Source: Escherichia coli (GTDB lineage Bacteria > Pseudomonadota > Gammaproteobacteria > Enterobacterales > Enterobacteriaceae). Taken from it: DNA of 64,000 nt. The first letter of the stretch is position 1; every line of letters starts with the position of its first letter. The translations under genes were made by a program, and so were the position numbers. The notes below the pieces were generated by a model. The model did no database searches and was not told the origin of the DNA. It saw only the letters and a program-made list of their open reading frames with translations. Of the stretch, positions 2,095 through 43,764 are shown piece after piece. The stretch lies in NCBI RefSeq assembly GCF_013122565.1, contig NZ_CP053258.1; one strand, given 5' to 3'.

Positions 2095-2936
2095 TTGAGA
2101 ACCGTCCATGGCTGACAATATTCAGCCATACCATGCTGATCCTCGGGATCGCGGTGATCCTCTTCCCGCTGTACGTGGCGTTTGTCGCGGCGACGCTGGA
2201 TAAACAGGCCGTCTACGCCGCGCCGATGACGCTAATCCCCGGCACGCATCTGCTGGAAAACATCCACAACATCTGGGTAAACGGGGTAGGCACGAATAGT
2301 GCGCCGTTCTGGCGGATGTTACTTAACAGCTTCGTGATGGCGTTCAGCATCACGCTCGGCAAAATTACCGTCTCGATGCTCTCGGCATTTGCCATTGTCT
2401 GGTTTCGTTTTCCACTACGTAACCTCTTCTTCTGGATGATTTTTATCACCCTGATGTTGCCGGTTGAAGTACGTATCTTCCCGACGGTGGAAGTCATCGC
2501 CAACCTGAAGATGCTCGACAGCTACGCAGGTTTAACGCTGCCGCTGATGGCCTCGGCGACCGCGACGTTTCTTTTCCGCCAGTTCTTTATGACCCTACCG
2601 GATGAACTGGTGGAAGCCGCGCGGATCGACGGCGCGTCGCCAATGCGCTTCTTTTGCGACATCGTTTTTCCGTTGTCCAAAACTAATCTGGCGGCGTTGT
2701 TTGTGATCACCTTTATTTACGGCTGGAACCAGTATTTGTGGCCGTTGTTGATTATTACCGACGTGGATCTCGGCACCACCGTGGCAGGGATCAAAGGGAT
2801 GATCGCCACTGGCGAAGGCACCACAGAATGGAACTCGGTGATGGCTGCGATGTTGTTAACGCTGATCCCTCCGGTGGTGATTGTTTTAGTGATGCAGCGT
2901 GCCTTCGTGCGCGGCCTGGTCGATAGTGAGAAATAA
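2091..2936 (+). CDS. ugpE: sn-glycerol-3-phosphate ABC transporter permease
   Basis: 281-aa membrane permease; 4-nt overlap with ugpA. Confidence 0.92.
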
Positions 2937-2937
2937 G

Positions 2938-4008
2938 ATGGCAGGACTGAAATTACAGGCAGTAACCAAAAGCTGGGATGGCAAAACCCAGGTGATTAAA
3001 CCGCTGACCCTTGATGTGGCGGATGGCGAATTTATCGTGATGGTCGGGCCGTCTGGCTGCGGGAAATCGACGCTGCTGCGCATGGTTGCCGGGCTGGAGC
3101 GGGTGACCGAAGGCGATATCTGGATCGACCGCAAGCGTGTCACCGAAATGGAGCCGAAAGATCGCGGGATTGCGATGGTGTTCCAGAACTACGCGCTTTA
3201 TCCGCATATGAGTGTTGAAGAAAACATGGCGTGGGGGCTGAAAATTCGCGGCATGGGCAAGCAGCAAATTGCCGAACGGGTTAAAGAAGCGGCGCGTATT
3301 CTGGAGCTGGACGGCCTGCTCAAACGTCGCCCGCGCGAGCTATCTGGCGGTCAGCGCCAGCGTGTGGCGATGGGCCGCGCGATTGTGCGCGATCCGGCGG
3401 TGTTCTTGTTTGATGAGCCGCTCTCTAACCTCGATGCCAAGCTGCGCGTGCAGATGCGTCTTGAACTGCAACAGCTGCACCGTCGCCTGAAAACGACTTC
3501 ACTCTACGTTACTCATGATCAGGTTGAGGCGATGACGCTCGCCCAGCGAGTAATGGTGATGAACGGCGGCGTTGCCGAACAGATTGGCACGCCAGTGGAA
3601 GTTTACGAAAAGCCCGCCAGCCTGTTTGTAGCGAGTTTTATCGGCAGTCCGGCGATGAACCTGCTGACAGGCCGCGTGAATAATGAAGGCACGCATTTCG
3701 AACTGGACGGCGGTATTGTGCTGCCGCTAAACGGTGGCTACCGTCAGTATGCCGGGCGTAAAATGACTCTCGGCATTCGCCCGGAACATATAGCGCTAAG
3801 CTCGCAGGCAGAAGGTGGTGTGCCGCTGGTGATGGACACGCTGGAGATCCTCGGCGCTGATAACCTGGCGCACGGACGCTGGGGCGAACAGAAGCTGGTG
3901 GTACGGCTGGCGCATCAGGAGCGCCCGACGGCAGGCAGCACGCTGTGGCTGCATCTGGCGGAAAATCAGCTGCATCTTTTTGATGGTGAAACAGGACAAC
4001 GAGTATGA
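2938..4008 (+). CDS. ugpC: sn-glycerol-3-phosphate ABC transporter ATP-binding protein
   Basis: Walker [13 protein letters not shown] signature LSGGQRQR, Walker [11 protein letters not shown]. Start taken at MAGLKLQ (2938) rather than the longer ORF start 2899. Confidence 0.92.
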
Positions 4009-7707: not shown

Positions 7708-7797
7708 GCGATCAGGAAGACCCTCGCGGAGAACCTGAAAGCACGACATTGCTCACATTGCTTCCAGTATTACTTAGCCAGCCGGGTGCTGGCTTTT
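7708..7797 (+). ncRNA. ryhB: small regulatory RNA RyhB (iron-sparing, Fur-repressed, Hfq-dependent)
   Basis: Sequence gcgatcaggaagaccctcgcggagaacctgaaagcacgacattgctcacattgcttccagtattacttagccagccgggtgctggc followed by a T-run is recognised as RyhB; it lies in the yhhY-yhhX intergenic region with an intrinsic terminator hairpin at its 3' end. Confidence 0.9.
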
Positions 7798-7918
7798 TTT
7801 TTGATCTTTCGTTCTCAATTTATCCACGGGAGTGCTTGTGTTCGTTATGCGCACTCCAGTAGGAACCACGTCCGCTTTGCGCTAAGGTGTAAATAACCAC
7901 CTTAAAAAGGACGAAATC

Positions 7919-18647: not shown

Positions 18648-20834
18648 ATGTCCGATCGTATCGATAGAGACGTGATTAACGCGCTAATTGCAGGCCATTT
18701 TGCGGATCCTTTTTCCGTACTGGGAATGCATAAAACCACCGCGGGACTGGAAGTCCGTGCCCTTTTACCCGACGCTACCGATGTGTGGGTGATTGAACCG
18801 AAAACCGGGCGCAAACTCGCAAAACTGGAGTGTCTCGACTCACGAGGATTTTTTAGCGGCGTCATTCCGCGACGTAAGAATTTTTTCCGCTATCAGTTGG
18901 CTGTAGTCTGGCATGGTCAGCAAAACCTGATTGATGATCCTTACCGTTTTGGTCCGCTAATCCAGGAAATGGATGCCTGGCTATTATCTGAAGGTACTCA
19001 CCTGCGCCCGTATGAAACCTTAGGTGCGCATGCAGATACTATGGATGGCGTCACAGGTACGCGTTTTTCTGTCTGGGCTCCAAACGCCCGTCGGGTCTCG
19101 GTGGTTGGGCAATTCAACTACTGGGACGGTCGCCGTCATCCGATGCGCCTGCGTAAAGAGAGCGGCATCTGGGAACTGTTTATCCCTGGGGCGCATAACG
19201 GTCAGCTCTATAAATACGAGATGATTGATGCCAATGGCAACTTGCGTCTGAAGTCCGACCCTTATGCCTTCGAAGCGCAAATGCGTCCGGAAACCGCGTC
19301 TCTTATTTGCGGGTTGCCGGAAAAGGTTGTGCAGACTGAAGAGCGCAAAAAAGCGAATCAGTTTGATGCGCCAATCTCTATTTATGAAGTTCACCTGGGC
19401 TCCTGGCGGCGTCACACCGACAACAATTTCTGGTTGAGCTACCGCGAGCTGGCCGATCAACTGGTGCCTTATGCTAAATGGATGGGCTTTACCCACCTCG
19501 AACTACTGCCCATTAACGAGCATCCCTTCGATGGCAGTTGGGGTTATCAGCCAACCGGCCTGTATGCACCAACCCGCCGTTTTGGTACTCGCGACGACTT
19601 CCGTTATTTCATTGATGCCGCACACGCAGCGGGTCTGAACGTGATTCTCGACTGGGTGCCAGGCCACTTCCCGACCGATGACTTTGCGCTTGCCGAATTT
19701 GATGGCACGAACTTGTATGAACACAGCGATCCGCGCGAAGGCTATCATCAGGACTGGAATACGCTGATCTACAACTATGGTCGCCGTGAAGTCAGTAACT
19801 TCCTCGTCGGTAACGCGCTTTACTGGATTGAACGTTTTGGTATTGATGCGCTGCGCGTCGATGCGGTGGCGTCAATGATTTATCGCGACTACAGCCGTAA
19901 AGAGGGGGAGTGGATCCCGAACGAATTTGGCGGGCGCGAGAATCTTGAAGCGATTGAATTCTTGCGTAATACCAACCGTATTCTTGGTGAGCAGGTTTCC
20001 GGTGCGGTGACAATGGCTGAGGAGTCTACCGATTTCCCTGGCGTTTCTCGTCCGCAGGATATGGGCGGTCTGGGCTTCTGGTACAAGTGGAACCTCGGCT
20101 GGATGCATGACACCCTGGACTACATGAAGCTCGACCCGGTTTATCGTCAGTATCATCACGATAAACTCACCTTCGGGATTCTCTACAACTACACTGAAAA
20201 CTTCGTCCTGCCGTTGTCGCATGATGAAGTGGTCCACGGTAAAAAATCGATTCTCGACCGGATGCCGGGCGACGCATGGCAGAAATTCGCTAACCTGCGC
20301 GCCTACTATGGCTGGATGTGGGCATTTCCGGGCAAGAAACTGCTGTTCATGGGGAACGAATTTGCCCAGGGCCGCGAGTGGAACCATGACGCCAGCCTCG
20401 ACTGGCATCTGTTGGAAGGCGGCGATAACTGGCACCACGGTGTCCAGCGTCTGGTGCGCGATCTGAACCTCACCTACCGCCACCATAAAGCAATGCATGA
20501 ACTGGATTTTGACCCGTACGGCTTTGAATGGCTGGTGGTGGATGACAAAGAACGCTCGGTGCTGATCTTTGTGCGTCGCGATAAAGAGGGTAACGAAATT
20601 ATCGTTGCCAGTAACTTTACGCCGGTGCCGCGTCATGATTATCGCTTCGGCATTAATCAGCCAGGCAAATGGCGTGAAATCCTCAATACCGATTCCATGC
20701 ACTATCACGGCAGTAATGCAGGCAATGGCGGCACGGTACACAGCGATGAGATTGCCAGCCACGGTCGTCAGCATTCACTAAGCCTGACACTACCACCGCT
20801 GGCCACTATCTGGCTGGTTCGGGAGGCAGAATGA
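18648..20834 (+). CDS. glgB: 1,4-alpha-glucan branching enzyme
   Basis: 728 aa, GH13 family; first gene of the glgBXCAP cluster. Confidence 0.95.
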
Positions 20835-28070: not shown

Positions 28071-28132
28071 TCGGAAAAGTGTCCAGAAGGGGCAAGGGGA
28101 CTCGGGGAGTATAATTTCGCCATTCAGAAAGA

Positions 28133-29650
28133 ATGGAAAGAATAATGCAAAACAGAAAATGGATTTTGACCTCGCTGGTAATGACTTTTTTCGGCATCCC
28201 CATACTGACGCAATTTTTGGCAGCGGTTGTTGCTATGCTGGGGGGCGGGCTTGCCGCTATTCTTGAGGTTTGCAATTTACTCTTTACGCCAGCAATTTAT
28301 CTTCTACTCAACGTCTTTATGCTGACTCTGGGGGCGATAATAATATTTTTCTCTGGTCGCGTGTGGGCGGGCGATAGTGCACCAGAAAAAAAAGAAATAG
28401 CCGTCTGGCGACAATGTCTTTTTTTAGTACCTGCTTTATTCACCCTGGTTGGCTGGATAATCACGCTACATCTGGCAGATTATCAATTTCGCCAGATGGG
28501 AGACGGTTGGTTGGCAAACCTTATGCTTCCCTGGTTGGGCGTTTTTTTAGTCTCATTAGTGGGTGGTGAGTACTGGTGGATAGTCATTATACCCGTTGGC
28601 GCGCATATCAGTTTTTCGCTGGGGTACGGTTGGCCGACCAGACATCTTTTAACGGGCACGTCCGGGTTACGTTGCCGTAATTCCCTCTTGTTTATCCTTC
28701 TCATGCTTGGTTTTGTCGCCGGTTACCAGGCTTATTTATATAAACAGCTTAATCCCGGCGTCGGTGTGCGTGAAAATATTGATACCTGGGCCTGGCGACC
28801 CGATAAACTCAATAATCAACTGACACCACTGCGTGGTAAACCGCAAATTCAGTTCACGCAAAACTGGCCGCGACTCGATGGTGCTACGGCGGCGTACCCA
28901 ATTTATGCCTCTGCATTTTATGCTTTAAGCGTTATACCGGAAGATTTTCACGCCAGGAAATATCTGGAGAACTCTCGTACCCCCGATGCGTATAACAGGA
29001 TTGTTAAAGGTGATGCCGATATTATTTTTGTGGCGCAGCCCTCCGGTGGGCAGAAAAAACGCGCTGAGGAATCGGGCGTCACTTTGCTGTACACGCCTTT
29101 TGCCCGTGAAGCGTTTGTTTTCATCGTCAATGCAGATAACCCGGTTAATTCCCTGACCGAACAACAAGTGCGTGACATCTTCAGTGGCGCAATTACCAAC
29201 TGGCGCACGGTTGGCGGTAACGATCAGGAGATCCAGACCTGGCAACGCCCGGAAGACTCAGGTAGCCAGACGGTGATGCAGGCGCAGGTCATGAAAAATG
29301 TACGTATGATCTCGCCGCAGGAGACCGAAGTGGCTGAAATGATGGGAGGGATGATTAAAGTTGTTGCCGAATACCGTAATACAAACAACTCAATAGGCTA
29401 CACCTTCCGCTATTACGCAACGCAAATGAATACCGATAAGAATATCAAATTGTTAGCGATTAACGGTATTGCACCGACTGCGGAAAACATCCGTAACGGC
29501 AAATATCCCTATATCGTCGATGCCTTTATGGTAACGCGGGAAAATATGACGTCAGAAACGCAAAAACTGGTGGAATGGTTTTTAACGCCGCAGGGGCAAA
29601 GCCTGGTGGAAGATGTGGGTTATGTGCCGATGTATCCAACAATGAAATAA
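28133..29650 (+). CDS. membrane-embedded protein with C-terminal PstS-like periplasmic binding domain
   Basis: 505 aa. N-terminal ~200 aa contains about 5-6 hydrophobic helices; C-terminal ~290 aa resembles PstS-family binding proteins (GATAAYPIYASAFY, WQRPEDSGSQTVMQ, VGYVPMYP). Start could be 28145. Confidence 0.55.
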   Translation: MERIMQNRKWILTSLVMTFFGIPILTQFLAAVVAMLGGGLAAILEVCNLLFTPAIYLLLNVFMLTLGAIIIFFSGRVWAGDSAPEKKEIAVWRQCLFLVPALFTLVGWIITLHLADYQFRQMGDGWLANLMLPWLGVFLVSLVGGEYWWIVIIPVGAHISFSLGYGWPTRHLLTGTSGLRCRNSLLFILLMLGFVAGYQAYLYKQLNPGVGVRENIDTWAWRPDKLNNQLTPLRGKPQIQFTQNWPRLDGATAAYPIYASAFYALSVIPEDFHARKYLENSRTPDAYNRIVKGDADIIFVAQPSGGQKKRAEESGVTLLYTPFAREAFVFIVNADNPVNSLTEQQVRDIFSGAITNWRTVGGNDQEIQTWQRPEDSGSQTVMQAQVMKNVRMISPQETEVAEMMGGMIKVVAEYRNTNNSIGYTFRYYATQMNTDKNIKLLAINGIAPTAENIRNGKYPYIVDAFMVTRENMTSETQKLVEWFLTPQGQSLVEDVGYVPMYPTMK

Positions 29651-29675
29651 CCCTTGAGAGAAGGGAATCAGGGCG

Positions 29676-30677
29676 ATGAATAAATTCACAGAAGTTTTAC
29701 TGCTAGGTGCGGTATTACTGGCGGGATACGCCGACCGGGAAGCATACTATAACAGCGTCAGGGAAGAAGAGAGTCATGGACTGACTTCTCTGCGGGGACA
29801 GCCTGAATTACGTTACAGCGAAGATTGGTCAAGATGGCCCAGAGTGTACGGCGCTACCGCCTTATACCCCCTGTATGCTTCTGCATATTATGAATTAGTA
29901 CCGGAGCCGAAAGATGCGGATCAAACCTCACTGGCCTGGCAGGCGTATGGTCTGCAGCAAACCCGAACAGCTGAAGCCTACGATAATCTGATTAAAGGTA
30001 CTGCGACTGTTATTTTTGTCGCGCAACCTTCTGAAGGGCAGAAAAAACGTGCAGAAGAAGCGGGAGTTAAGCTGAAATATACCGCGTTTGCCCGCGAAGC
30101 CTTTGTCTTTATCGTTGATATCAAAAACCCGGTGAATTCACTCAGCGAACAGCAGGTCAAAGACATTTTTAGCGGTAAAGTGAGTCGCTGGAATAAAGTC
30201 GGTGGCAGCGACGAACGCATAAAAGTGTGGCAGCGCCCGGAAGATTCCGGTAGCCAGACGGTAATGCAAGAGTTAGTTATGCAAGGCACACCGATGTTAC
30301 CCGCTAAAAAATCAACCATGGTTGATCTTATGGGTGGGTTAATTACCGAAGTCGCCGACTATCAAAACACGCCATCTTCAATCGGTTATACCTTTTATTA
30401 TTATGTTACGCGTATGAATAGTAATATGCTCAAAATGCGCAAGCAGATCAAATTATTAGCCATCAACGGCGTCGCCCCCACTGAGGAAAATATTCGCAAC
30501 GGATCTTATCCCTATATTGTGGACGCCTATATGGTGACCCGTGAAAATCCAGCACCGGAAACGCAAAAGTTTGTCGACTGTTTTTTAAGCCCGCAGGGGC
30601 AACAGTTGGTGCAGGATGTGGGGTATGTGCCTTTATACCCGATTACGAACTCTCGTAAAAAGGATTTTGAAAAATGA
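29676..30677 (+). CDS. secreted PstS-like periplasmic binding-domain protein, paralog of the preceding gene
   Basis: 333 aa with N-terminal signal peptide; shares GATALYPLYASAYY, WQRPEDSGSQTVMQ and VGYVPLYP with the upstream gene. Confidence 0.55.
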   Translation: MNKFTEVLLLGAVLLAGYADREAYYNSVREEESHGLTSLRGQPELRYSEDWSRWPRVYGATALYPLYASAYYELVPEPKDADQTSLAWQAYGLQQTRTAEAYDNLIKGTATVIFVAQPSEGQKKRAEEAGVKLKYTAFAREAFVFIVDIKNPVNSLSEQQVKDIFSGKVSRWNKVGGSDERIKVWQRPEDSGSQTVMQELVMQGTPMLPAKKSTMVDLMGGLITEVADYQNTPSSIGYTFYYYVTRMNSNMLKMRKQIKLLAINGVAPTEENIRNGSYPYIVDAYMVTRENPAPETQKFVDCFLSPQGQQLVQDVGYVPLYPITNSRKKDFEK

Positions 30678-30952
30678 AAATATCAATAAGTAAACTTAGT
30701 GAATTTAAAAAGGTTTCTTTATTATTTCTGGCCTACTCATTATTTATTACTGCTGGGTGTGTCAGTCATCAGAATGTTACTGAAAGTATAAAAGAAAAAC
30801 AGAGTTATAATATTACAAGGATACAGGGGAAACCCGTATTACAAATTCCCGAAAAGGAAGCAACGTGGTTGACCGTGGCGAGGGCCACTACGTTATATCC
30901 ATTGTACTCTTCGGCATATCACATGGTTATAGTTGAACCCAGTGGACACTGA
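30674..30952 (+). pseudogene. truncated third PstS-like paralog with lipoprotein signal peptide
   Basis: 92 aa; lipobox ITAGC, then only the first ~45 aa of the binding domain (IQGKPVLQIPE...ATTLYPLYSSAYH) before a stop; ATGA overlap with the upstream gene; very AT-rich DNA follows. Confidence 0.5.
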
Positions 30953-31027
30953 TTCTGATAATATAGAAAAATCAATGATTAACGTCTCTGTTAATATGGG
31001 TATTACTCAGTAAAGGTAAGAAAAATT

Positions 31028-31219
31028 ATGCTGAAACGATTATTTTTTATTATTCTTATTTTATCCGCAACGGGATGTTCTATTGTTGACACCTCTCTGG
31101 AGAAAAAAGACTTACTTAATTTATCTGTATATGAAAATAATATTGTTGATAATTCAGTGTTAATAAGAGTTGTAGCCAGTCAAAAGGTAAAAGAGACCTG
31201 GTATATATGCAACGAATAA
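31028..31219 (+). CDS. small putative lipoprotein (hypothetical)
   Basis: 63 aa; signal peptide with lipobox LSATGC; in the AT-rich block. Confidence 0.35.
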   Translation: MLKRLFFIILILSATGCSIVDTSLEKKDLLNLSVYENNIVDNSVLIRVVASQKVKETWYICNE

Positions 31220-31671
31220 TAGAAAAAGCTTTAACGGTTTTGCTTATGATTTACGCCGGATCAGCAGCTGCCGAAGGTAAAGTGAACGATTTATGCCACA
31301 TAGGTGATCGTGTAGATAAACTTGAGATTACAAATTATCCTCATGATTACGAGTCGCTAGTTGCAGTTGATGAGAAGCGATTGAATGAAATTTATAAATA
31401 CAAGGTTGAAATTACCTATCTTGATAATAAAGAAAGTAAAAAAATTGTTGAACTATTACAAATGGATTATGCGGAACAAGAAGAAAATGTTACTGATGTG
31501 AGGTGGCGGGTGAATATCACTTCATATGGAAATAAAAAATGTGATATCTATTTTGATGGTTTTGGCTTATGTGGAAAAATTAATGGTGAGAATGTCTGTT
31601 TCAGGCATAACGAAATGATACGGTGGATTGAGTCTCATATTTCTGTATTTCTACATAGTGTTAACGAATGA
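31207..31671 (+). CDS. small secreted hypothetical protein
   Basis: 154 aa; signal peptide ending AGSAAAEG; AT-rich codon usage. Confidence 0.4.
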   Translation: MQRIIEKALTVLLMIYAGSAAAEGKVNDLCHIGDRVDKLEITNYPHDYESLVAVDEKRLNEIYKYKVEITYLDNKESKKIVELLQMDYAEQEENVTDVRWRVNITSYGNKKCDIYFDGFGLCGKINGENVCFRHNEMIRWIESHISVFLHSVNE

Positions 31672-31690
31672 ATGTGAAAAAGGAATTTAT

Positions 31691-32143
31691 ATGCAATTTT
31701 TATTTAAAAATAATAAATTATTTTTTATAAGGATAAGGTTAGTTTCGGTTATTTTATTTTTATTTATGAGTACTTCCTTGTATGCTAAAAATCCATGTGA
31801 AGGACTTAAAGGTGATTTACCTGCGGCGCAGTTAATTCCACTTAAGAAAAATATTGCCAGGCAGTTGAATTCTGAAATGGAACAGGTAGTAGAAGTTAAT
31901 AAAGTTGAAATATTATCTTTCGATACCTTGCAGGAATGGTCAATTGTTGGTGTCGCTACCGGAGTATCAGATGATGCATTGTTAATTTATAAAGGGAATA
32001 TCACTAAAACTGATTATGTGGCATTATTTGGAGGCGCTGCAAGTATTAACGATGACATGATCCAATGGATAAACCAGAAAGCGCCGGGAATTCCAGATAA
32101 GTTGGCACAATGTTTTGCGTGGGGAGCTGTATATCGTGATTGA
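31691..32143 (+). CDS. small secreted hypothetical protein
   Basis: 150 aa from MQFLFKNNK with aagga Shine-Dalgarno 8 nt upstream; signal peptide ending LYAKNP. Confidence 0.4.
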   Translation: MQFLFKNNKLFFIRIRLVSVILFLFMSTSLYAKNPCEGLKGDLPAAQLIPLKKNIARQLNSEMEQVVEVNKVEILSFDTLQEWSIVGVATGVSDDALLIYKGNITKTDYVALFGGAASINDDMIQWINQKAPGIPDKLAQCFAWGAVYRD

Positions 32144-32161
32144 TAATAAAAGGACAACCAA

Positions 32162-32869
32162 ATGGAATTAGTTGATACGTTATTTGCAAGCCTCGCCGGT
32201 ACTGATCCTTTCACAGGCGTGGATATTACGATTGCCAAATGCGAATCGGCATATTGGGCCGAGGGCATTGTTCAGCTGCTCATTAACCAGGCCCTGGATG
32301 AAGGGGAAAAGTTCGTCGGTGCTGCCGGTCTTGAGGGATTGCTTCGATATGATGTCACATTAAATATTGGCTTAACGTCCAGCAATGTATGGCCGGGGTT
32401 TTCCCTCGATACCGCCACCATTGGCCGTCTTTGTGCCTGTGGTGCTGACTTTGGATTTGACCCTTATATCAGTGATGTACCAGATGTTCAATGTGACCTG
32501 AACACGACAAATGACTTCACCGTTCAATTTACGGCGATGCTCAACCCGGAGCGGGCGATCATAGCAAAGCGCCCGCTTAAAAAATGTGACTCCTGGATTG
32601 AGGATGTCTATATCTTTCAGGTCTTTAAAGAAGCCTGGAAGTTTCATAACGATAACAGCTTACGAGGATTTCGCGATAAGCAGGCTGAACTGAAACTCTA
32701 CGCGCGTCATTACTCAGTGGAAAATTGTATAGAGGAAAGCTGCCGTGACTGTAATAGTTGTATTCGGCCCAGCTTTTCCCTTTCTCGTAGTGCCATTATT
32801 CGCCTGAACGCGGCGAATGCTCGTTTTGTTTATCAACCGTTTACACGCGACCAGCGGGCGAGGGGGTAA
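32162..32869 (+). CDS. hypothetical protein, Cys-rich C-terminal part
   Basis: 235-aa ORF with no recognisable family; stop lies 2 nt before the next start. Confidence 0.4.
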   Translation: MELVDTLFASLAGTDPFTGVDITIAKCESAYWAEGIVQLLINQALDEGEKFVGAAGLEGLLRYDVTLNIGLTSSNVWPGFSLDTATIGRLCACGADFGFDPYISDVPDVQCDLNTTNDFTVQFTAMLNPERAIIAKRPLKKCDSWIEDVYIFQVFKEAWKFHNDNSLRGFRDKQAELKLYARHYSVENCIEESCRDCNSCIRPSFSLSRSAIIRLNAANARFVYQPFTRDQRARG

Positions 32870-32871
32870 TT

Positions 32872-33660
32872 ATGCAACCCAGTCCCGCCATGCAGAATAT
32901 TATTGCCCATGCCTGGGCGATATTTCATTTTTATCCTGCACCGCAACAGTTCAATATTTGCGTTCCTTGCTGTGTCAGCGAAGAGGTCGCGCAGGCGTTA
33001 CGGCAAACACCGTTACGTCAATTAACCGTTGAAATGATATATGAATGGAACAGTAGCGCGAGGCCTTTTGAACAACAGAATGATGAAATCCGTTACCTCC
33101 TTCCGAGACTGCTGGAATTACTGGCTCACGGTCATTGTCCTGCCATAAATGAAGAGTTATGCCTGAAACGTATTGGCGCTATTTCCCTGGACACCTGGCA
33201 GCCGGAGGAGCGTGATGTACTTACCGATTTTTCCCGCCAGTATATTCGCGATTTATTACTTACCCCGACATTGACCGATCTTGAATCTGCCCTCGTGATG
33301 TTTCATTTTGCCGGACTATCTATAACGGCTTTATTAGATGAGGCGCTGAACACGCCTGGCTATTGGGCTATCGCTTCGCTGGCCTATTTTTTGTATATCA
33401 AGCGTCCAAACGGCGAATTACGTAACGCGTTTATCTCACGCAAGCCGGATGGTGAAGTGATAACGCAGCAAATTAACGCCTGGATTGCGCAATCATGTCA
33501 CGCGCTGGCAGAACGCGCCGCGGCGGCGATTGAATGCTCGCCATCCCTTCCCGGCGGTGGACACACGGAGTACAGTGTTGACCTGAGCTACCTGATTGAC
33601 GAAAGCCTTTGTGCGCTTGTTGATTATCAATTGCTCTGGACGATGGACCGTAATGAATAA
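32872..33660 (+). CDS. hypothetical protein, paralog A of a tandem pair
   Basis: 262 aa beginning MQPSPAMQ; shares N-terminal Cys motif, NDEIRYLLPRL and other blocks with the next gene. Confidence 0.45.
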   Translation: MQPSPAMQNIIAHAWAIFHFYPAPQQFNICVPCCVSEEVAQALRQTPLRQLTVEMIYEWNSSARPFEQQNDEIRYLLPRLLELLAHGHCPAINEELCLKRIGAISLDTWQPEERDVLTDFSRQYIRDLLLTPTLTDLESALVMFHFAGLSITALLDEALNTPGYWAIASLAYFLYIKRPNGELRNAFISRKPDGEVITQQINAWIAQSCHALAERAAAAIECSPSLPGGGHTEYSVDLSYLIDESLCALVDYQLLWTMDRNE

Positions 33661-33671
33661 GGAGATTCACA

Positions 33672-34448
33672 ATGCAACCCAGCCCCGCCATGCAGGCATT
33701 AATTGAGCAGATTTATCATATTTTTCGTCGTTATCCGGTGCCGTCGAGATTTCATGTTTGTTGTCCTTACTGCTTTAGCGAAGAACAACAACAAGCCTTA
33801 AAAGGGGTTTCACTGCGTGCCATACCTTTCCCTTTATTACATGCCTGGGGAACAAGTATTGGCCCTAACCCACAAAATGATAATGAGATTCGCTATTTAT
33901 TACCCAGATTGTTTGACTTTATTGCCCAAAGGCAATTTCCAGGCATTTATGAAGGCTGCTGTTTACAGAGAATAGCAGAAGCAGATAACCAGAACTGGCG
34001 AGCGGATGAACTACAAATAATTAGCGATTTCGCCTATTTATATATGCAGGATTGGGTGTCGGTTAAGGAAGTTGTGGAGCTGGAAATAATATTAGAAATG
34101 TTTTATCGCGGTGGTATAAAGATTGAACCCTTACTTGACGCTATTATGTCCATTTCCGGTTACTGGCCGACGGCGTCAATGGCATGTTTGCTCTGGCGTA
34201 ACAGTAAAGAATACGTCGAAAATAGCGAGTTTGAGCAGAGTGATGATGATAAAACCATTACCACCCAAATCAATACCTGGGCTAGAAATAATCATCCTTT
34301 GCTGAAAGAACGCGCGCGGCAAGCGATTGAGAACCCGCTAAAACAGCCCGAACAGGGCACACGATATCAGGTCTGGGAAGACGACTGGATGATTGATGAG
34401 TGTTTGTGCGCAATGTATGACGCATCATCCGAATCATCAGGACAATAA
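33672..34448 (+). CDS. hypothetical protein, paralog B of a tandem pair
   Basis: 258 aa beginning MQPSPAMQ; paralogous to 32872..33660. Confidence 0.45.
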   Translation: MQPSPAMQALIEQIYHIFRRYPVPSRFHVCCPYCFSEEQQQALKGVSLRAIPFPLLHAWGTSIGPNPQNDNEIRYLLPRLFDFIAQRQFPGIYEGCCLQRIAEADNQNWRADELQIISDFAYLYMQDWVSVKEVVELEIILEMFYRGGIKIEPLLDAIMSISGYWPTASMACLLWRNSKEYVENSEFEQSDDDKTITTQINTWARNNHPLLKERARQAIENPLKQPEQGTRYQVWEDDWMIDECLCAMYDASSESSGQ

Positions 34449-34450
34449 AG

Positions 34451-34633
34451 ATGAATAAAATCAAACTTTATATTCCTCCGCTATTTCTCGGCTTTGTTAT
34501 TGTGCCGCTGTTGGTGTGGCCGACGGTGGTTGCGCTGGCGGCTTTTGGTATCACGCTGAGTTTTCTGGGGGAGTTACTGTTCTTAATCCCGATCATAGTC
34601 CGACGTATGTCACTTCTGGAAGCACAACTTTGA
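34451..34633 (+). CDS. small hydrophobic membrane protein, possibly the N-terminal part of a stop-interrupted gene
   Basis: 60 aa with two predicted transmembrane helices; same reading frame as the following ORF, separated by a single TGA. Confidence 0.3.
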   Translation: MNKIKLYIPPLFLGFVIVPLLVWPTVVALAAFGITLSFLGELLFLIPIIVRRMSLLEAQL

Positions 34634-34666
34634 TTATCGGCTGAATATACGCTTGTTTTCTGTGCA

Positions 34667-35050
34667 ATGGTGGGCGTTGGTTGGCAATTCTCTCGCAGAA
34701 CGTCACCTGAATTAAAAAACAGACTGCATTTTTGGCTGGTCTTTACACCGGTTTATTTCTGGTTGCTTCTGTGGAATATCATTTTCTATATCGGGCCAGC
34801 GAAAAATGCATTGCTGGAAAATATCCGCAATTTCTTTTTAACAATTGTCTGGTTACCGCTGAATTTTTCGCCACTTTGGTCCCAACCGTGGACTGACTTT
34901 GTCGGTCCAATAAGCGCACAGCTTGGTTTTGCGTTGGGATATTATTGCCAGTGGCGTAGCAAAAATAGAAGCCAGGGGCAGAAGTGGGGTGAGTGGGGAA
35001 CGTGTCTTAGTTTTGTTACGTTGGGTATGATGGCATGGGTTTTGCGGTAA
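34667..35050 (+). CDS. hydrophobic membrane protein, possibly the C-terminal part of a stop-interrupted gene
   Basis: 127 aa with predicted transmembrane helices; in frame with 34451..34633. Confidence 0.3.
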   Translation: MVGVGWQFSRRTSPELKNRLHFWLVFTPVYFWLLLWNIIFYIGPAKNALLENIRNFFLTIVWLPLNFSPLWSQPWTDFVGPISAQLGFALGYYCQWRSKNRSQGQKWGEWGTCLSFVTLGMMAWVLR

Positions 35051-35100
35051 TTTCCTGAATCAAAAAGCAGGCCAGATTGTTGACGAAGTGCGCTTTGTTC

Positions 35101-35199
35101 ATGCCGGATGCGGCGTGAACGCCTTATTCGGCCTACAAAATCATGCAAATTCAATATATTGCATAAACCACGTAGGCTTGATAAGCGTAGCGCATCAGG
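35101..35199. repeat. BIME: two inverted REP units
   Basis: gccggatgcggcgtgaacgccttattcggcctac and gtaggcttgataagcgtagcgcatcagg in inverted orientation. Confidence 0.7.
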
Positions 35200-35263
35200 A
35201 AATTTTGTGTTTGTCATCAGTCTCAGGCCAGATTGAAATCTGACCTGATCACCTTACGTTAAT

Positions 35264-38176: not shown

Positions 38177-38935
38177 ATGAAACAAACACAACGTCACAAC
38201 GGTATTATCGAACTGGTTAAACAGCAGGGTTATGTCAGTACCGAGGAACTGGTGGAGCACTTCTCCGTCAGCCCGCAGACTATTCGCCGCGACCTCAATG
38301 AGCTGGCAGAGCAAAACCTGATCCTGCGCCATCATGGCGGTGCGGCGCTGCCTTCCAGTTCGGTTAACACGCCGTGGCACGATCGTAAAGCCACCCAGAC
38401 CGAAGAAAAAGAGCGCATCGCCCGCAAAGTGGCGGAGCAAATCCCCAATGGCTCGACGCTGTTTATCGATATCGGCACCACGCCGGAAGCGGTGGCGCAC
38501 GCGCTGCTCAATCACAGCAATTTGCGCATTGTGACTAACAATCTCAACGTTGCTAACACGCTGATGGTAAAAGAAGATTTTCGCATCATTCTCGCCGGTG
38601 GCGAATTACGTAGCCGCGATGGTGGGATCATAGGCGAAGCGACGCTCGATTTTATCTCTCAGTTCCGCCTCGACTTTGGCATTCTGGGGATCAGCGGCAT
38701 CGATAGCGACGGCTCGCTGCTGGAATTCGATTACCACGAAGTTCGCACCAAACGCGCCATTATTGAGAACTCGCGCCACGTTATGCTGGTGGTCGATCAC
38801 TCGAAATTTGGCCGTAACGCGATGGTCAATATGGGTAGCATCAGCATGGTCGATGCCGTCTACACCGACGCCCCGCCGCCTGCGGGCGTGATGCAGGTGC
38901 TGACGGACCACCATATTCAACTGGAGCTGTGCTGA
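38177..38935 (+). CDS. glpR: glycerol-3-phosphate regulon repressor (DeoR family)
   Basis: 252 aa from MKQTQRHNGIIELVKQQGYV (helix-turn-helix); the longer ORF start 38126 was rejected. Confidence 0.9.
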   Translation: MKQTQRHNGIIELVKQQGYVSTEELVEHFSVSPQTIRRDLNELAEQNLILRHHGGAALPSSSVNTPWHDRKATQTEEKERIARKVAEQIPNGSTLFIDIGTTPEAVAHALLNHSNLRIVTNNLNVANTLMVKEDFRIILAGGELRSRDGGIIGEATLDFISQFRLDFGILGISGIDSDGSLLEFDYHEVRTKRAIIENSRHVMLVVDHSKFGRNAMVNMGSISMVDAVYTDAPPPAGVMQVLTDHHIQLELC

Positions 38936-40515
38936 TCCTGCACGGCTTCCCACGTCAGACCAAAACGCGCCAGGTATTTGCGTAGCCGATCTGCGTCGTT
39001 GACGCTGGCTTTGCCCTGGCGCGAAACATCAAAAAGCTGGCGACCGGCAGCAGAAAGCGACTTTGCCTGGCGGCAGATAGCGATAACGTGTTCCAGTTGC
39101 AGTCGGTCAAAGAGATCGATGTTTTCTGCCTCCGCGCCCAGCAACGCCGTAAGCGCGGAAGGACGGGTCTCCTGCCAGTTATAGCGCAGACGGTTTATCT
39201 CATCTTCAACCACTTCCAGAGTGATGCGTCCGCTAGTGGCAAAGGTAGCCATCCGCGTGACGCTGGCAGAAAGCTCGCGAAAGTTACCGCGCCATGTTGC
39301 CTGGGGAGATGTCGCAAAGGCCAGCCAGGCACGCCGTGCTTCGGTGTTAAAACGTACGCTGTCGCCGGTAAGCGCGGCGTGTCGCTCCACTTCATAATCC
39401 AGGTTCGGTTCGATATCTTCCTGGCGCTGGCGTAGCCCCGGCAGGGTGAAGGTCCAGAGATTGATCCGCGCGTACAAGTCTTCGCGAAATTTGCCTTCGG
39501 CAACCAGCTGGCGCAAATCGCGCACCGTTCCGGCGATAAGCTGAAAATCACTGCTCACCTGGCGATCGCTGCCAAACGGATAAAAGGTTTTTTCTTCAAT
39601 GGCTTTAAGCAGCATTGCCTGTTCGTCTGCGCCCAGTTCGCCAATCTCATCAAGAAACAACATTCCGCCGTTGGCGCTGCGTAATAATCCTTCACGAGAT
39701 TCCCGCGCCCCGGTAAACGCGCCTTTCACATGACCAAACAGCGTCGACATGGCGGTATCGCCGCGCAGGGTTGCGCAGTTCACTTCCACAAACGCGCCGC
39801 TAAACTGATGCCGCGCCTGTTTTAATTCAAATATACGTCGCGCCAGAAATGACTTACCTGCACCGGTCGGGCCATTAAGCAGAATTGGCGCGCGGGATTT
39901 GATCGCTACTTTTTCAATCTGCTCAATCATGCGGTTGAAGTGGGGGTTACGCGTGGCAATGCCGGACTTAAGAAAATCGAGCGTTTGCTGCCGTTCCTCG
40001 GCAAAGCGGCTGGCGATGGCGTTATAACGGCTTAAATCGAGATCGATAATCGTCACTTCACCTGCGCCGCACGGCTGTTCTTTTTTGCGCGGAGGGGAAG
40101 ATTGTATCAGCCGGGCGGGCAGGTAACGCGCTTCCGCCAGCAGAAACCAGCAAATCTGTGCGACGTGGGTGCCAGTGGTGATGTGAATTAAATAGTCTTC
40201 TTTATCAGGTTGAAACGCGTAGCCACGGGCGAAATCATGCAGGCAGGCGTAAACCTCTTCGAAATCCCACGGGTTATGCAGTTCAATCTCAACGCTCACC
40301 ACTTCAGTTTCTGGCGAAACGCTGGCGATATCGCATTTAAGCGTTTCAAACAGCGAGCGCGAGCGGGCGTCGTGCAACAATTCCAGTCGATCGATGACTA
40401 ACGATTCTTGCTGGCATAAACAGAGTGTTGGACGCCATTTCGACCAGCGCTGACTGCCGCGTCCGGCATAATCCAGTACGGTGCCGACAAAGCCAAAAGC
40501 CACTGTTTTACGCAT
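38917..40515 (-). CDS. rtcR: sigma-54-dependent transcriptional activator of rtcBA
   Basis: 532 aa; AAA+ sigma-54 activator core ([14 protein letters not shown]) and C-terminal helix-turn-helix; divergent from rtcBA. Confidence 0.9.
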
Positions 40516-40649
40516 CTTAGATATCCTTATAAAAGACGATATTTCATTATCGGTAAATTGGCTTTGCGGGAAATCTCCGTTTACGGACTGGAAGATTTTA
40601 TCTATTTAAAAACAATGAATTAAAAAATTAAGCAGCTTATTTAATTTTC

Positions 40650-40665
40650 TGGCACGACGGTTGCA
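40650..40665 (+). promoter_or_regulatory. sigma-54 (-24/-12) promoter of rtcBA
   Basis: TGGCACgacggTTGCA is an exact match to TGGCAC-N5-TTGCA, about 40 nt upstream of rtcB. Confidence 0.8.
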
Positions 40666-40701
40666 ATTACCAGGACATACCAACGAAAAGAGAAAAACAA
40701 A

Positions 40702-41928
40702 ATGAATTACGAATTACTGACCACTGAAAATGCCCCGGTAAAAATGTGGACCAAAGGCGTGCCGGTAGAAGCCGATGCGCGTCAGCAACTTATTAATACG
40801 GCGAAGATGCCGTTTATTTTCAAACATATTGCGGTAATGCCTGATGTACACCTGGGTAAAGGTTCCACCATTGGTAGCGTGATCCCGACCAAAGGGGCGA
40901 TTATTCCGGCGGCGGTGGGCGTGGATATTGGCTGTGGAATGAACGCGCTACGTACCGCGTTAACGGCGGCAGACCTGCCTGAAAACCTGGCGGAGCTGCG
41001 TCAGGCGATTGAAACGGTCGTGCCGCACGGGCGTACTACCGGACGTTGTAAACGTGATAAAGGCGCATGGGAAAACCCGCCTGTTAACGTCGATGCGAAA
41101 TGGGCTGAGCTGGAGGCCGGTTATCAGTGGTTAACGCAAAAATATCCGCGTTTCCTTAACACTAACAACTATAAACACCTGGGAACGCTGGGAACGGGTA
41201 ACCACTTTATTGAAATCTGCCTTGATGAGTCGGAGCAGGTGTGGATTATGCTGCACTCCGGTTCACGCGGAATTGGTAACGCCATCGGGACTTACTTTAT
41301 CGATCTGGCGCAAAAAGAGATGCAGGACCAACTTGAGACGTTGCCGTCGCGTGATCTGGCGTACTTTATGGAAGGTACGGAATACTTTGATGATTACCTG
41401 AAAGCCGTGGCCTGGGCGCAGCTTTTTGCCAGCCTTAACCGCGATGCGATGATGGAAAACGTGGTAACGGCGTTGCAGAGCATTACGCAGAAAACGGTCA
41501 GACAGCCACAAACGCTGGCGATGGAAGAGATCAACTGTCACCACAACTATGTGCAAAAAGAACAGCACTTTGGTGAAGAGATCTACGTGACGCGTAAAGG
41601 CGCGGTGTCTGCGCGTGCTGGTCAATATGGAATTATTCCCGGTTCGATGGGAGCGAAAAGCTTTATCGTCCGTGGGCTGGGAAATGAAGAGTCGTTCTGT
41701 TCGTGCAGCCACGGTGCCGGGCGGGTTATGAGCCGTACTAAAGCGAAAAAACTGTTCAGCGTGGAAGATCAAATTCGTGCTACCGCGCATGTGGAATGCC
41801 GTAAAGATGCCGAAGTGATCGACGAAATCCCGATGGCGTATAAAGATATTGATGCGGTGATGGCGGCACAAAGCGATCTGGTGGAAGTTATCTACACCCT
41901 GCGTCAGGTGGTGTGCGTAAAAGGATAA
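40702..41928 (+). CDS. rtcB: RNA-splicing ligase RtcB
   Basis: 408 aa; RtcB family. Confidence 0.93.
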   Translation: MNYELLTTENAPVKMWTKGVPVEADARQQLINTAKMPFIFKHIAVMPDVHLGKGSTIGSVIPTKGAIIPAAVGVDIGCGMNALRTALTAADLPENLAELRQAIETVVPHGRTTGRCKRDKGAWENPPVNVDAKWAELEAGYQWLTQKYPRFLNTNNYKHLGTLGTGNHFIEICLDESEQVWIMLHSGSRGIGNAIGTYFIDLAQKEMQDQLETLPSRDLAYFMEGTEYFDDYLKAVAWAQLFASLNRDAMMENVVTALQSITQKTVRQPQTLAMEEINCHHNYVQKEQHFGEEIYVTRKGAVSARAGQYGIIPGSMGAKSFIVRGLGNEESFCSCSHGAGRVMSRTKAKKLFSVEDQIRATAHVECRKDAEVIDEIPMAYKDIDAVMAAQSDLVEVIYTLRQVVCVKG

Positions 41929-42960
<1,032 letters not shown>

Positions 42961-43009: not shown

Positions 43010-43495
43010 TTACTCCAGAGTAATGGGATACAGTAAGGTAAGTGACTGGAATGGTGAAGGTACAAAGGCATACTTCAGATAGAAATTGCGTACTGAATCG
43101 TCTAAAGCATGAACAATGAGCGCACGAACCCCTACCTGTTGAGCTATGGACATTGTGCGATAGACTGCATCTTTCAACAATGCGACGCCCAGCCCTTTAC
43201 CTGCCCAGGCTTGATCAATTGCCAGTCTGCCTAATACGACAACAGGCAACGATTCGGGAGCATTACGTCGCATGGCTCCAGGGGTCAAATTACGTTGAAT
43301 ACTGCCTGTAGAAAGGCAGTAATAGCCGATTACCTGACGGGTATTGGCAATACAGATAACGTAAACACGAGACAGACCGGAGCTGTGATTTTTTAACTCT
43401 TTCTTTTTTAGCCATTCATTCATCCCGTGATCGGAACAGCAAAAGTCAGCCAGATTATGTTCAGACGTTAGGGGAGTAGGAGGCGTTATTCCCAT
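43010..43495 (-). CDS. GNAT-family acetyltransferase toxin of a type II toxin-antitoxin pair (TacT/KacT/ItaT-like)
   Basis: 161 aa; GNAT acetyl-CoA motif VLGRLAIDQAWAGKGLGVALL; 10-nt overlap with the upstream DUF1778-type gene. Confidence 0.7.
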   Translation of the reverse strand: MGITPPTPLTSEHNLADFCCSDHGMNEWLKKKELKNHSSGLSRVYVICIANTRQVIGYYCLSTGSIQRNLTPGAMRRNAPESLPVVVLGRLAIDQAWAGKGLGVALLKDAVYRTMSIAQQVGVRALIVHALDDSVRNFYLKYAFVPSPFQSLTLLYPITLE

Positions 43496-43764
43496 GGCGA
43501 TTTACGATTCATCAACGCGTTAATTTTGGCCTGACGCTCAGCAGTGATGGGGGCGTCCAGGGCAGCCAGAAATGCATCGTATTGCTCGTCATCAACGATG
43601 AATAGTCGTTGATCTAATAAGATGTCTTGCGCTTCACGGCATGCGGCATCCAGCATAAAATCAGTGCGCGATTTTGCGACCAGATTCGCTGCCATATCAA
43701 TCAGGTCACGCTGTGAGGCTTTCGCCCTGATATTGATTGGCGCTTCTTTGCTTTCCGGTTTCAT
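43486..43764 (-). CDS. DUF1778-type (ribbon-helix-helix) antitoxin partner of the GNAT toxin
   Basis: 92 aa; N-terminal PINIRAKASQRDLIDMAANL typical of TacA/KacA-like antitoxins; first in the operon. Confidence 0.7.
   Translation of the reverse strand: MKPESKEAPINIRAKASQRDLIDMAANLVAKSRTDFMLDAACREAQDILLDQRLFIVDDEQYDAFLAALDAPITAERQAKINALMNRKSPWE

Follow-up and report, generated by a model that had tools for sequence, protein, structure and literature searches.

Introduction

The sigma-54 promoter of rtcBA, the RNA-repair operon of Escherichia coli, was reportedly described in 1998 by Genschik et al., and a -12 element TTGCA and a -24 element TGGCA are said to have been recognized upstream of the mapped start of the rtcA/rtcB mRNA. 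The promoter is thus already known and is an ordinary feature. Transcription of rtcBA depends on RtcR and sigma-54 (PMC9650030, PMC5175333, PMC3844500). In K-12, sigma-54 ChIP-seq placed the intergenic peak OS35, assigned to the gene rtcB, on the sequence CTGGCACGACGGTTGCA, with a fold-above-threshold value of 17, a PSSM score of 11.16, and the EcoCyc status 'C', meaning experimentally confirmed (Bonocora et al. 2015, PMC4591121). The same study predicted that transcription in K-12 begins 19 bp downstream of the centre of the motif, at a distance of 28 nt from the start of rtcB. Native PrtcBA was primed with ApC at positions -1/+1, with ATP added after it (Kotta-Loizou et al. 2022, PMC9650030). 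In that work, the wild-type rtcBA promoter was very weak in vitro, and its -24/-12 element was replaced with that of nifH.

Upstream of the core, a fragment reaching no further than 175 nt from the rtcB ATG sufficed for RtcR-dependent reporter activity (Engl et al. 2016, PMC5175333). The sequence of the RtcR enhancer was given as 'NK' in a 2016 review, and no definition of an RtcR upstream activating sequence (UAS) later than 2016 was found in the literature searched. An IHF site in the rtc promoter has been mentioned without coordinates (PMC9650030), and the rtcR promoter has been described only as sigma-70-type and divergent (PMC9879122).

A related promoter is that of rsr in Salmonella, TGGCACGCTGGTTGCAAT, which is bound by sigma-54 and active (PMC3844500). 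Unlike rtcBA, the rsr operon begins with rsr, encoding a Ro60-like protein; YrlA-type Y RNAs come next, ahead of rtcB. Another system with a comparable arrangement is pspF-pspA, in which the activator gene is divergent from its target, the enhancer lies by the activator's own start, and IHF binds between the enhancer and the -24/-12 element. Herein, we analysed a 64 kb stretch of E. coli DNA (the window) in which an exact sigma-54 consensus had been predicted upstream of rtcBA, and compared it with these systems. We conclude that positions 40650–40665 are almost certainly the -24/-12 core promoter of rtcBA, activated by RtcR.

Results

Gene organization of the rtc locus

The rtcR gene occupies positions 38917–40515 on the minus strand and encodes a CARF-AAA+ sigma-54 activator of 532 aa. 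The protein matched the NCBIfam model NF038308 with 849.6 bits (cutoff 650) and contained the Pfam domains RtcR/CARF (PF06956, residues 2–185) and Sigma54_activat (PF00158, residues 187–354), with the Walker A motif GPTGAGKS at 215 and GAFTGA at residues 265–270. Divergent from rtcR, rtcB and rtcA form one operon on the plus strand (40702–42960). The first gene, rtcB (40702–41928), encodes an RNA ligase of 408 aa with 98.8% identity to K-12 RtcB by tblastn. The rtcA ORF of 343 aa (41929–42960; NF003247, 777 bits), encoding the RNA 3'-terminal phosphate cyclase, abuts the rtcB stop codon, and the annotated K-12 start is one codon later. The calls of rtcR, rtcB, and rtcA in the window are sound, and the proposed use of the site as an internal positive control is valid.

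In a megablast search of 5,426 complete E. coli genomes, the locus was located between glpR and malT, with its genes annotated as rtcR, rtcB, and rtcA. Approximately 570–590 of these genomes lacked the gap between rtcR and rtcB or the greater part of the locus. E. coli SCPM-O-B-8794 (L022, ~2892–3099) carried a deletion allele in which the last ~33 codons of rtcR and the last ~46 codons of rtcA were left.

The -24/-12 core motif

The original prediction of an exact -24/-12 consensus was borne out by the sequence. At 40650–40665 on the plus strand, TGGCACGACGGTTGCA reads TGGCAC-N5-TTGCA without mismatch. The motif lies in the 186-nt gap between rtcR and rtcB, ends 37 nt 5' of the rtcB ATG, and is 135 nt away from the divergent rtcR. 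Its core contains the doublets GG (40651–40652) and GC (40663–40664), 10 bp apart. The sigma-54 consensus reportedly compiled by Barrios et al. in 1999, YTGGCACG-N4-TTGCWNNw, is fitted by the window as CTGGCACG-ACGG-TTGCA-ATT.

A scan for the exact pattern (TGGCACNNNNNTTGCA) on both strands returned this one match in the entire 64 kb. Dinucleotide-preserving shuffles of the window gave a mean of 0.06 exact matches, with at least one match in 6 of 100 shuffles, so that the exact-match count by itself, at about P = 0.06, is only suggestive. When up to two mismatches to TGGCAC-N5-TTGCA were allowed, the window contained 47 matches against 42 expected, which was uninformative. The site stands above chance because it is intergenic, is aimed at rtcB, is divergent from the gene of a sigma-54 activator, and is invariant across genera. 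It should be noted that "exact consensus" applies to the core, and that a consensus core does not imply strength.

Another candidate, TGGCACCCACGTCGCA, was located inside rtcR (40159–40174, minus strand, sense with rtcR) and had one mismatch to the sigma-54 core. It was missing in K-12 and in all 30 fetched loci, the K-12 ChIP-seq tables list no rtcR site, and the match is probably due to chance.

Comparison with K-12 and the transcription start

The 17-mer of the K-12 rtcB promoter (CTGGCACGACGGTTGCA) is identical in the window, and the identity extends over the 50 nt preceding the 16-mer and the 4 nt following it. The rtcR-rtcB gap of K-12 aligns end to end with that of the window, and both share the divergent rtcR and rtcB-rtcA as well as the location between glpR and malT. 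Several differences were observed. The window carries a T-to-C change at -6 (40670), which was not seen in four other Escherichia sequences or in nine other enteric loci aligned. Its leader is 2 nt shorter (26 vs 28 nt; 40677–40680), a feature that it has in common with E. albertii and two Escherichia sp. About 10 substitutions are clustered at 40580–40650, between the palindrome described below and the IHF-like site. The window was only ~96.3–96.5% identical to the E. coli genomes compared, indicating an origin in a somewhat diverged lineage of Escherichia.

Sigma-54 occupancy, RtcR/sigma-54 dependence, and the start site can be transferred to the window by analogy, from publications on the identical K-12 sequence. 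The start predicted from the ChIP-seq data (PMC4591121) would correspond to C40676 in the window (40657 + 19), 26 nt before the ATG; the leader is 2 nt shorter by deletion, which explains the difference between 26 and 28 nt. At 40675–40677 the window has the bases A-C-A, and the ApC primer (PMC9650030) matches A40675/C40676. The two lines of evidence thus fall on the same dinucleotide and point to +1 at C40676 (plus strand), directly after A40675, a position consistent with the element. With +1 at 40676, the GG doublet would be -25/-24 and the GC doublet -13/-12. Together with the K-12 identity and the occupancy of OS35, the studies of rtcBA regulation (PMC9650030, PMC5175333, PMC3844500) support the claim that the element accords with the known RtcR/sigma-54 dependence of the operon.

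The predicted 5' leader of 26 nt (40676–40701, plus strand) contains a purine-rich Shine-Dalgarno sequence, AAGAGA, at 40688–40693. In the alignment, the leader/Shine-Dalgarno block AACG-AA...G-GA was conserved across enterics, whether the first gene was rtcB or rsr. When the rtcR-rtcB gap and the leader were scanned with Rfam, neither matched an RNA family.

Conservation of the promoter among RtcR loci

A protein-anchored scan with one genome per species yielded 18 full RtcR loci, and a further eight were added by homologue search and contig look-ups, giving 26. A site was scored as sigma-54-type when GG and GC were present and at least 9 of the 11 core bases matched. Such a site was found on the divergent strand, 132–161 nt from the rtcR ATG, in 22 of the 26 loci, from several phyla; the background frequency in the same loci was 0.028 sites per 250 nt. 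The 22 include Escherichia species, Klebsiella oxytoca, Intestinirhabdus, Superficieibacter, Enterobacter, and Phytobacter, and also Iodobacter, Accumulibacter, Pseudomonas, Desulfogranum, and a Desulfovibrionaceae genome. Fifteen enteric intergenic regions were aligned, with a mean column identity of 68%; TGGCAC and TTGCA were the same in every one of them, and three of the five spacer bases varied.

Like the window, Salmonella Typhimurium rsrp (rsr-yrlBA-rtcBA) has the core TGGCAC-N5-TTGCAAT and a divergent rtcR, and its spacer is GCTGG instead of GACGG. The rsr-type loci also share with the window the distance to the rtcR ATG (133–134 nt). One of them, L027, carries TGGCACGCTGGTTGCA, which equals the published 16-mer of the Salmonella rsr promoter.

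In seven of the loci, from other enterics (L006, L018, L024, L025, and L027–L029), rsr (Ro60/TROVE) is the first gene behind this promoter and leader, and YrlA Y-RNA-like genes and then rtcB come after it. Rfam RF02553 matches were present in L006 and L018, the two of these rsr loci that were scanned. The K. oxytoca locus (L005, 2680–2870) keeps an apparent rsr start with its first codons and then continues directly with rtcB. Since the apparent rsr start is retained ahead of rtcB in K. oxytoca, comparison of these sequences suggests that the rtcBA-only arrangement arose by deletion.

Rfam tRNA matches were observed downstream of the rtc sigma-54 promoter, on the strand of the divergent operon, in two other loci: ~110 nt downstream in Pseudomonas (L009, 2637–2709, minus) and in Accumulibacter (L008, 1784–1851, minus).

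IHF-like site

An IHF-like site, AAACAATGAATTA, with one mismatch to WATCAANNNNTTR, was found at 40610–40622 (plus strand), centred at about -60. Its CAA-N5-TA core was invariant in the 15 enterics. Exact matches to WATCAANNNNTTR occurred in 3 of 10 non-Escherichia enterics, and in Iodobacter, Accumulibacter, and Pseudomonas. From the consensus match and the alignment, we infer that IHF may occupy 40610–40622.

The distance from the centre of the IHF-like site to the -24 GG was 35–37 bp in Escherichia, Pseudomonas, and betaproteobacteria, and 25–26 bp in the other enterics. Thus, in the sampled non-Escherichia enterics, rsr-type loci included, the site is ~10 bp nearer to the promoter than in the window. 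This shift of one helical turn (L005, L018, and L023–L029) is offset by indels of 9–10 bp, and the distance between the upstream palindrome and the promoter consequently remains constant.

A candidate RtcR enhancer

The alignments further revealed a palindrome, CGATATTTCATTATCG (CGATA-N6-TATCG), at 40537–40552, corresponding to -139 to -124 and lying 22–37 nt upstream of the rtcR ATG. A repeat search of the intergenic region had returned only A/T-rich pairs of low value and missed this palindrome with its 5-nt arms. CGATA-N6-TATCG is unique in the window, where 0.03 occurrences would be expected. In the 15 enteric regions, the arms were invariant or nearly so, and four central spacer positions varied. 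The distance from the palindrome centre to the -24 GG was 104.5–106.5 bp in all 16 enteric sequences, approximately ten helical turns.

Because the 175-nt reporter fragment is active (PMC5175333), the enhancer must lie at or downstream of ~40527, and the palindrome falls inside this interval. It is the best-conserved element there, the IHF-like site aside. A GCAG-N3-5-T-run block in most non-Escherichia enterics was less sharply conserved. Outside the enterics, GATA-N6-TATC was kept only in Pseudomonas sp. GD03944, 116.5 bp from the GG, and therefore an argument from deep conservation is weak; other Pseudomonas, Iodobacter, and Accumulibacter had GATA/TATC-like half-sites with different spacing.

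Judging from uniqueness, conservation, and spacing, we consider the chances about evenly balanced that the palindrome at 40537–40552 is the RtcR enhancer. Because the palindrome sits in the 5' region of rtcR, RtcR bound to it could also autoregulate its own gene, in the manner of PspF at pspF. Part of the conservation could reflect the rtcR promoter instead, since the ATTATC arm has the sequence GATAAT when read along rtcR; the conservation of the second arm speaks for a site that binds a dimer. A scan of 40400–40800 for sigma-70 promoters and terminators found nothing and so gave no location for the rtcR promoter.

A different sequence in the gap was set aside as an RtcR site. GGCTTTGCGGGAAATCTCCG (40560–40579) is the reverse complement of a 20-mer in the rtcB-rtcR gap that is bound in vivo by AtoC (PMC3118216), and it is conserved only within Escherichia.

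Alternative explanations for the -24/-12 match

Whether the match at 40650–40665 could have arisen by chance, as an 11-base motif that does not act as a promoter, should be considered. The shuffled windows, 6% of which contained at least one exact match, leave some room for this explanation, as do the relaxed matches at chance level and the one-mismatch site in rtcR, which is evidently a chance match. However, the site is intergenic, in the correct orientation, and 37 nt from the rtcB ATG; it is invariant in 15/15 enterics despite the modest overall identity of the aligned columns; a comparable site recurs in 22/26 RtcR loci, far more often than the background frequency predicts; and ChIP-seq shows sigma-54 on the identical sequence in K-12. 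We therefore regard a chance origin as extremely improbable.

Sigma-54 might also bind the site while rtcBA is expressed mainly from another promoter, independent of RtcR and sigma-54, leaving the -24/-12 element minor or poised. The very weak activity of the wild-type promoter in vitro would fit such a situation, and some inducers act without RtcR, possibly via alternative promoters (PMC9650030). But no sigma-70-type promoter was found in the consensus scan of 40400–40800, and constitutively active RtcR induces both a reporter and the operon in a sigma-54-dependent manner. The conserved candidate UAS, IHF-like site, and -24/-12 spacing, moreover, indicate selection on the enhancer-dependent route. 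A main promoter of another type is thus very unlikely, if slightly less so than a chance match, and 40650–40665 is best read as the functional sigma-54 promoter of rtcBA.

Neighbouring regions of the window

Downstream of rtcA, the window carries a toxin-antitoxin-like pair on the minus strand (43010–43764), consisting of a TacA-like antitoxin (92 aa, PF08681) and a GNAT acetyltransferase (161 aa). The pair lies between rtcA and malT and is convergent with rtcBA. K-12 is without it, and it was present at this spot in 394 of the 5,426 E. coli genomes. Charged tRNA is the target of TacT-type toxins, and the position of the pair beside an RNA-repair operon is therefore intriguing.

In most E. coli genomes, only 84% of window positions 20000–44000 is covered. 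An accessory island of ~7–8 kb was located between glgP and glpD (~28100–35200); according to the annotation of E. coli 2020CK-00188, it contains two PstS-family proteins, several hypothetical proteins, and an ankyrin-repeat protein. Rfam matches at gathering score in the window were RyhB (7737–7801, plus, 83 bits) and ES036/CssrF (35137–35179, plus, 39 bits).

Discussion

With the palindrome as candidate enhancer, the layout of the rtc locus equals that of pspF-pspA. A difference lies in the activators, as RtcR has a CARF sensing domain, whereas PspF is without a regulatory domain. In the K-12 ChIP-seq table, pspA is present alongside rtcB (PMC4591121).

From the elements described above, activation of rtcBA probably proceeds as follows. 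Sigma-54 RNA polymerase on TGGCAC/TTGCA would form a closed complex that is unable to start alone. RtcR would bind an upstream enhancer, most likely CGATA-N6-TATCG centred ~106 bp upstream of the -24 GG, although the choice of these bases as the enhancer is our inference. An RNA-damage signal would relieve the CARF domain and allow RtcR to oligomerise. IHF bound at about -60 would bend the DNA, such that the GAFTGA loops of the AAA+ ring could reach sigma-54. ATP hydrolysis would then open the promoter, and transcription would start at C40676 and proceed through the 26-nt leader into rtcB-rtcA.

The practical value of the rtcBA promoter site is that of a positive control, a regulatory element placed to the base. 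The forward value comes from the comparative work, which offers a testable candidate for the RtcR site together with a strictly conserved geometry of the candidate UAS, the IHF-like site, and the -24/-12 element.
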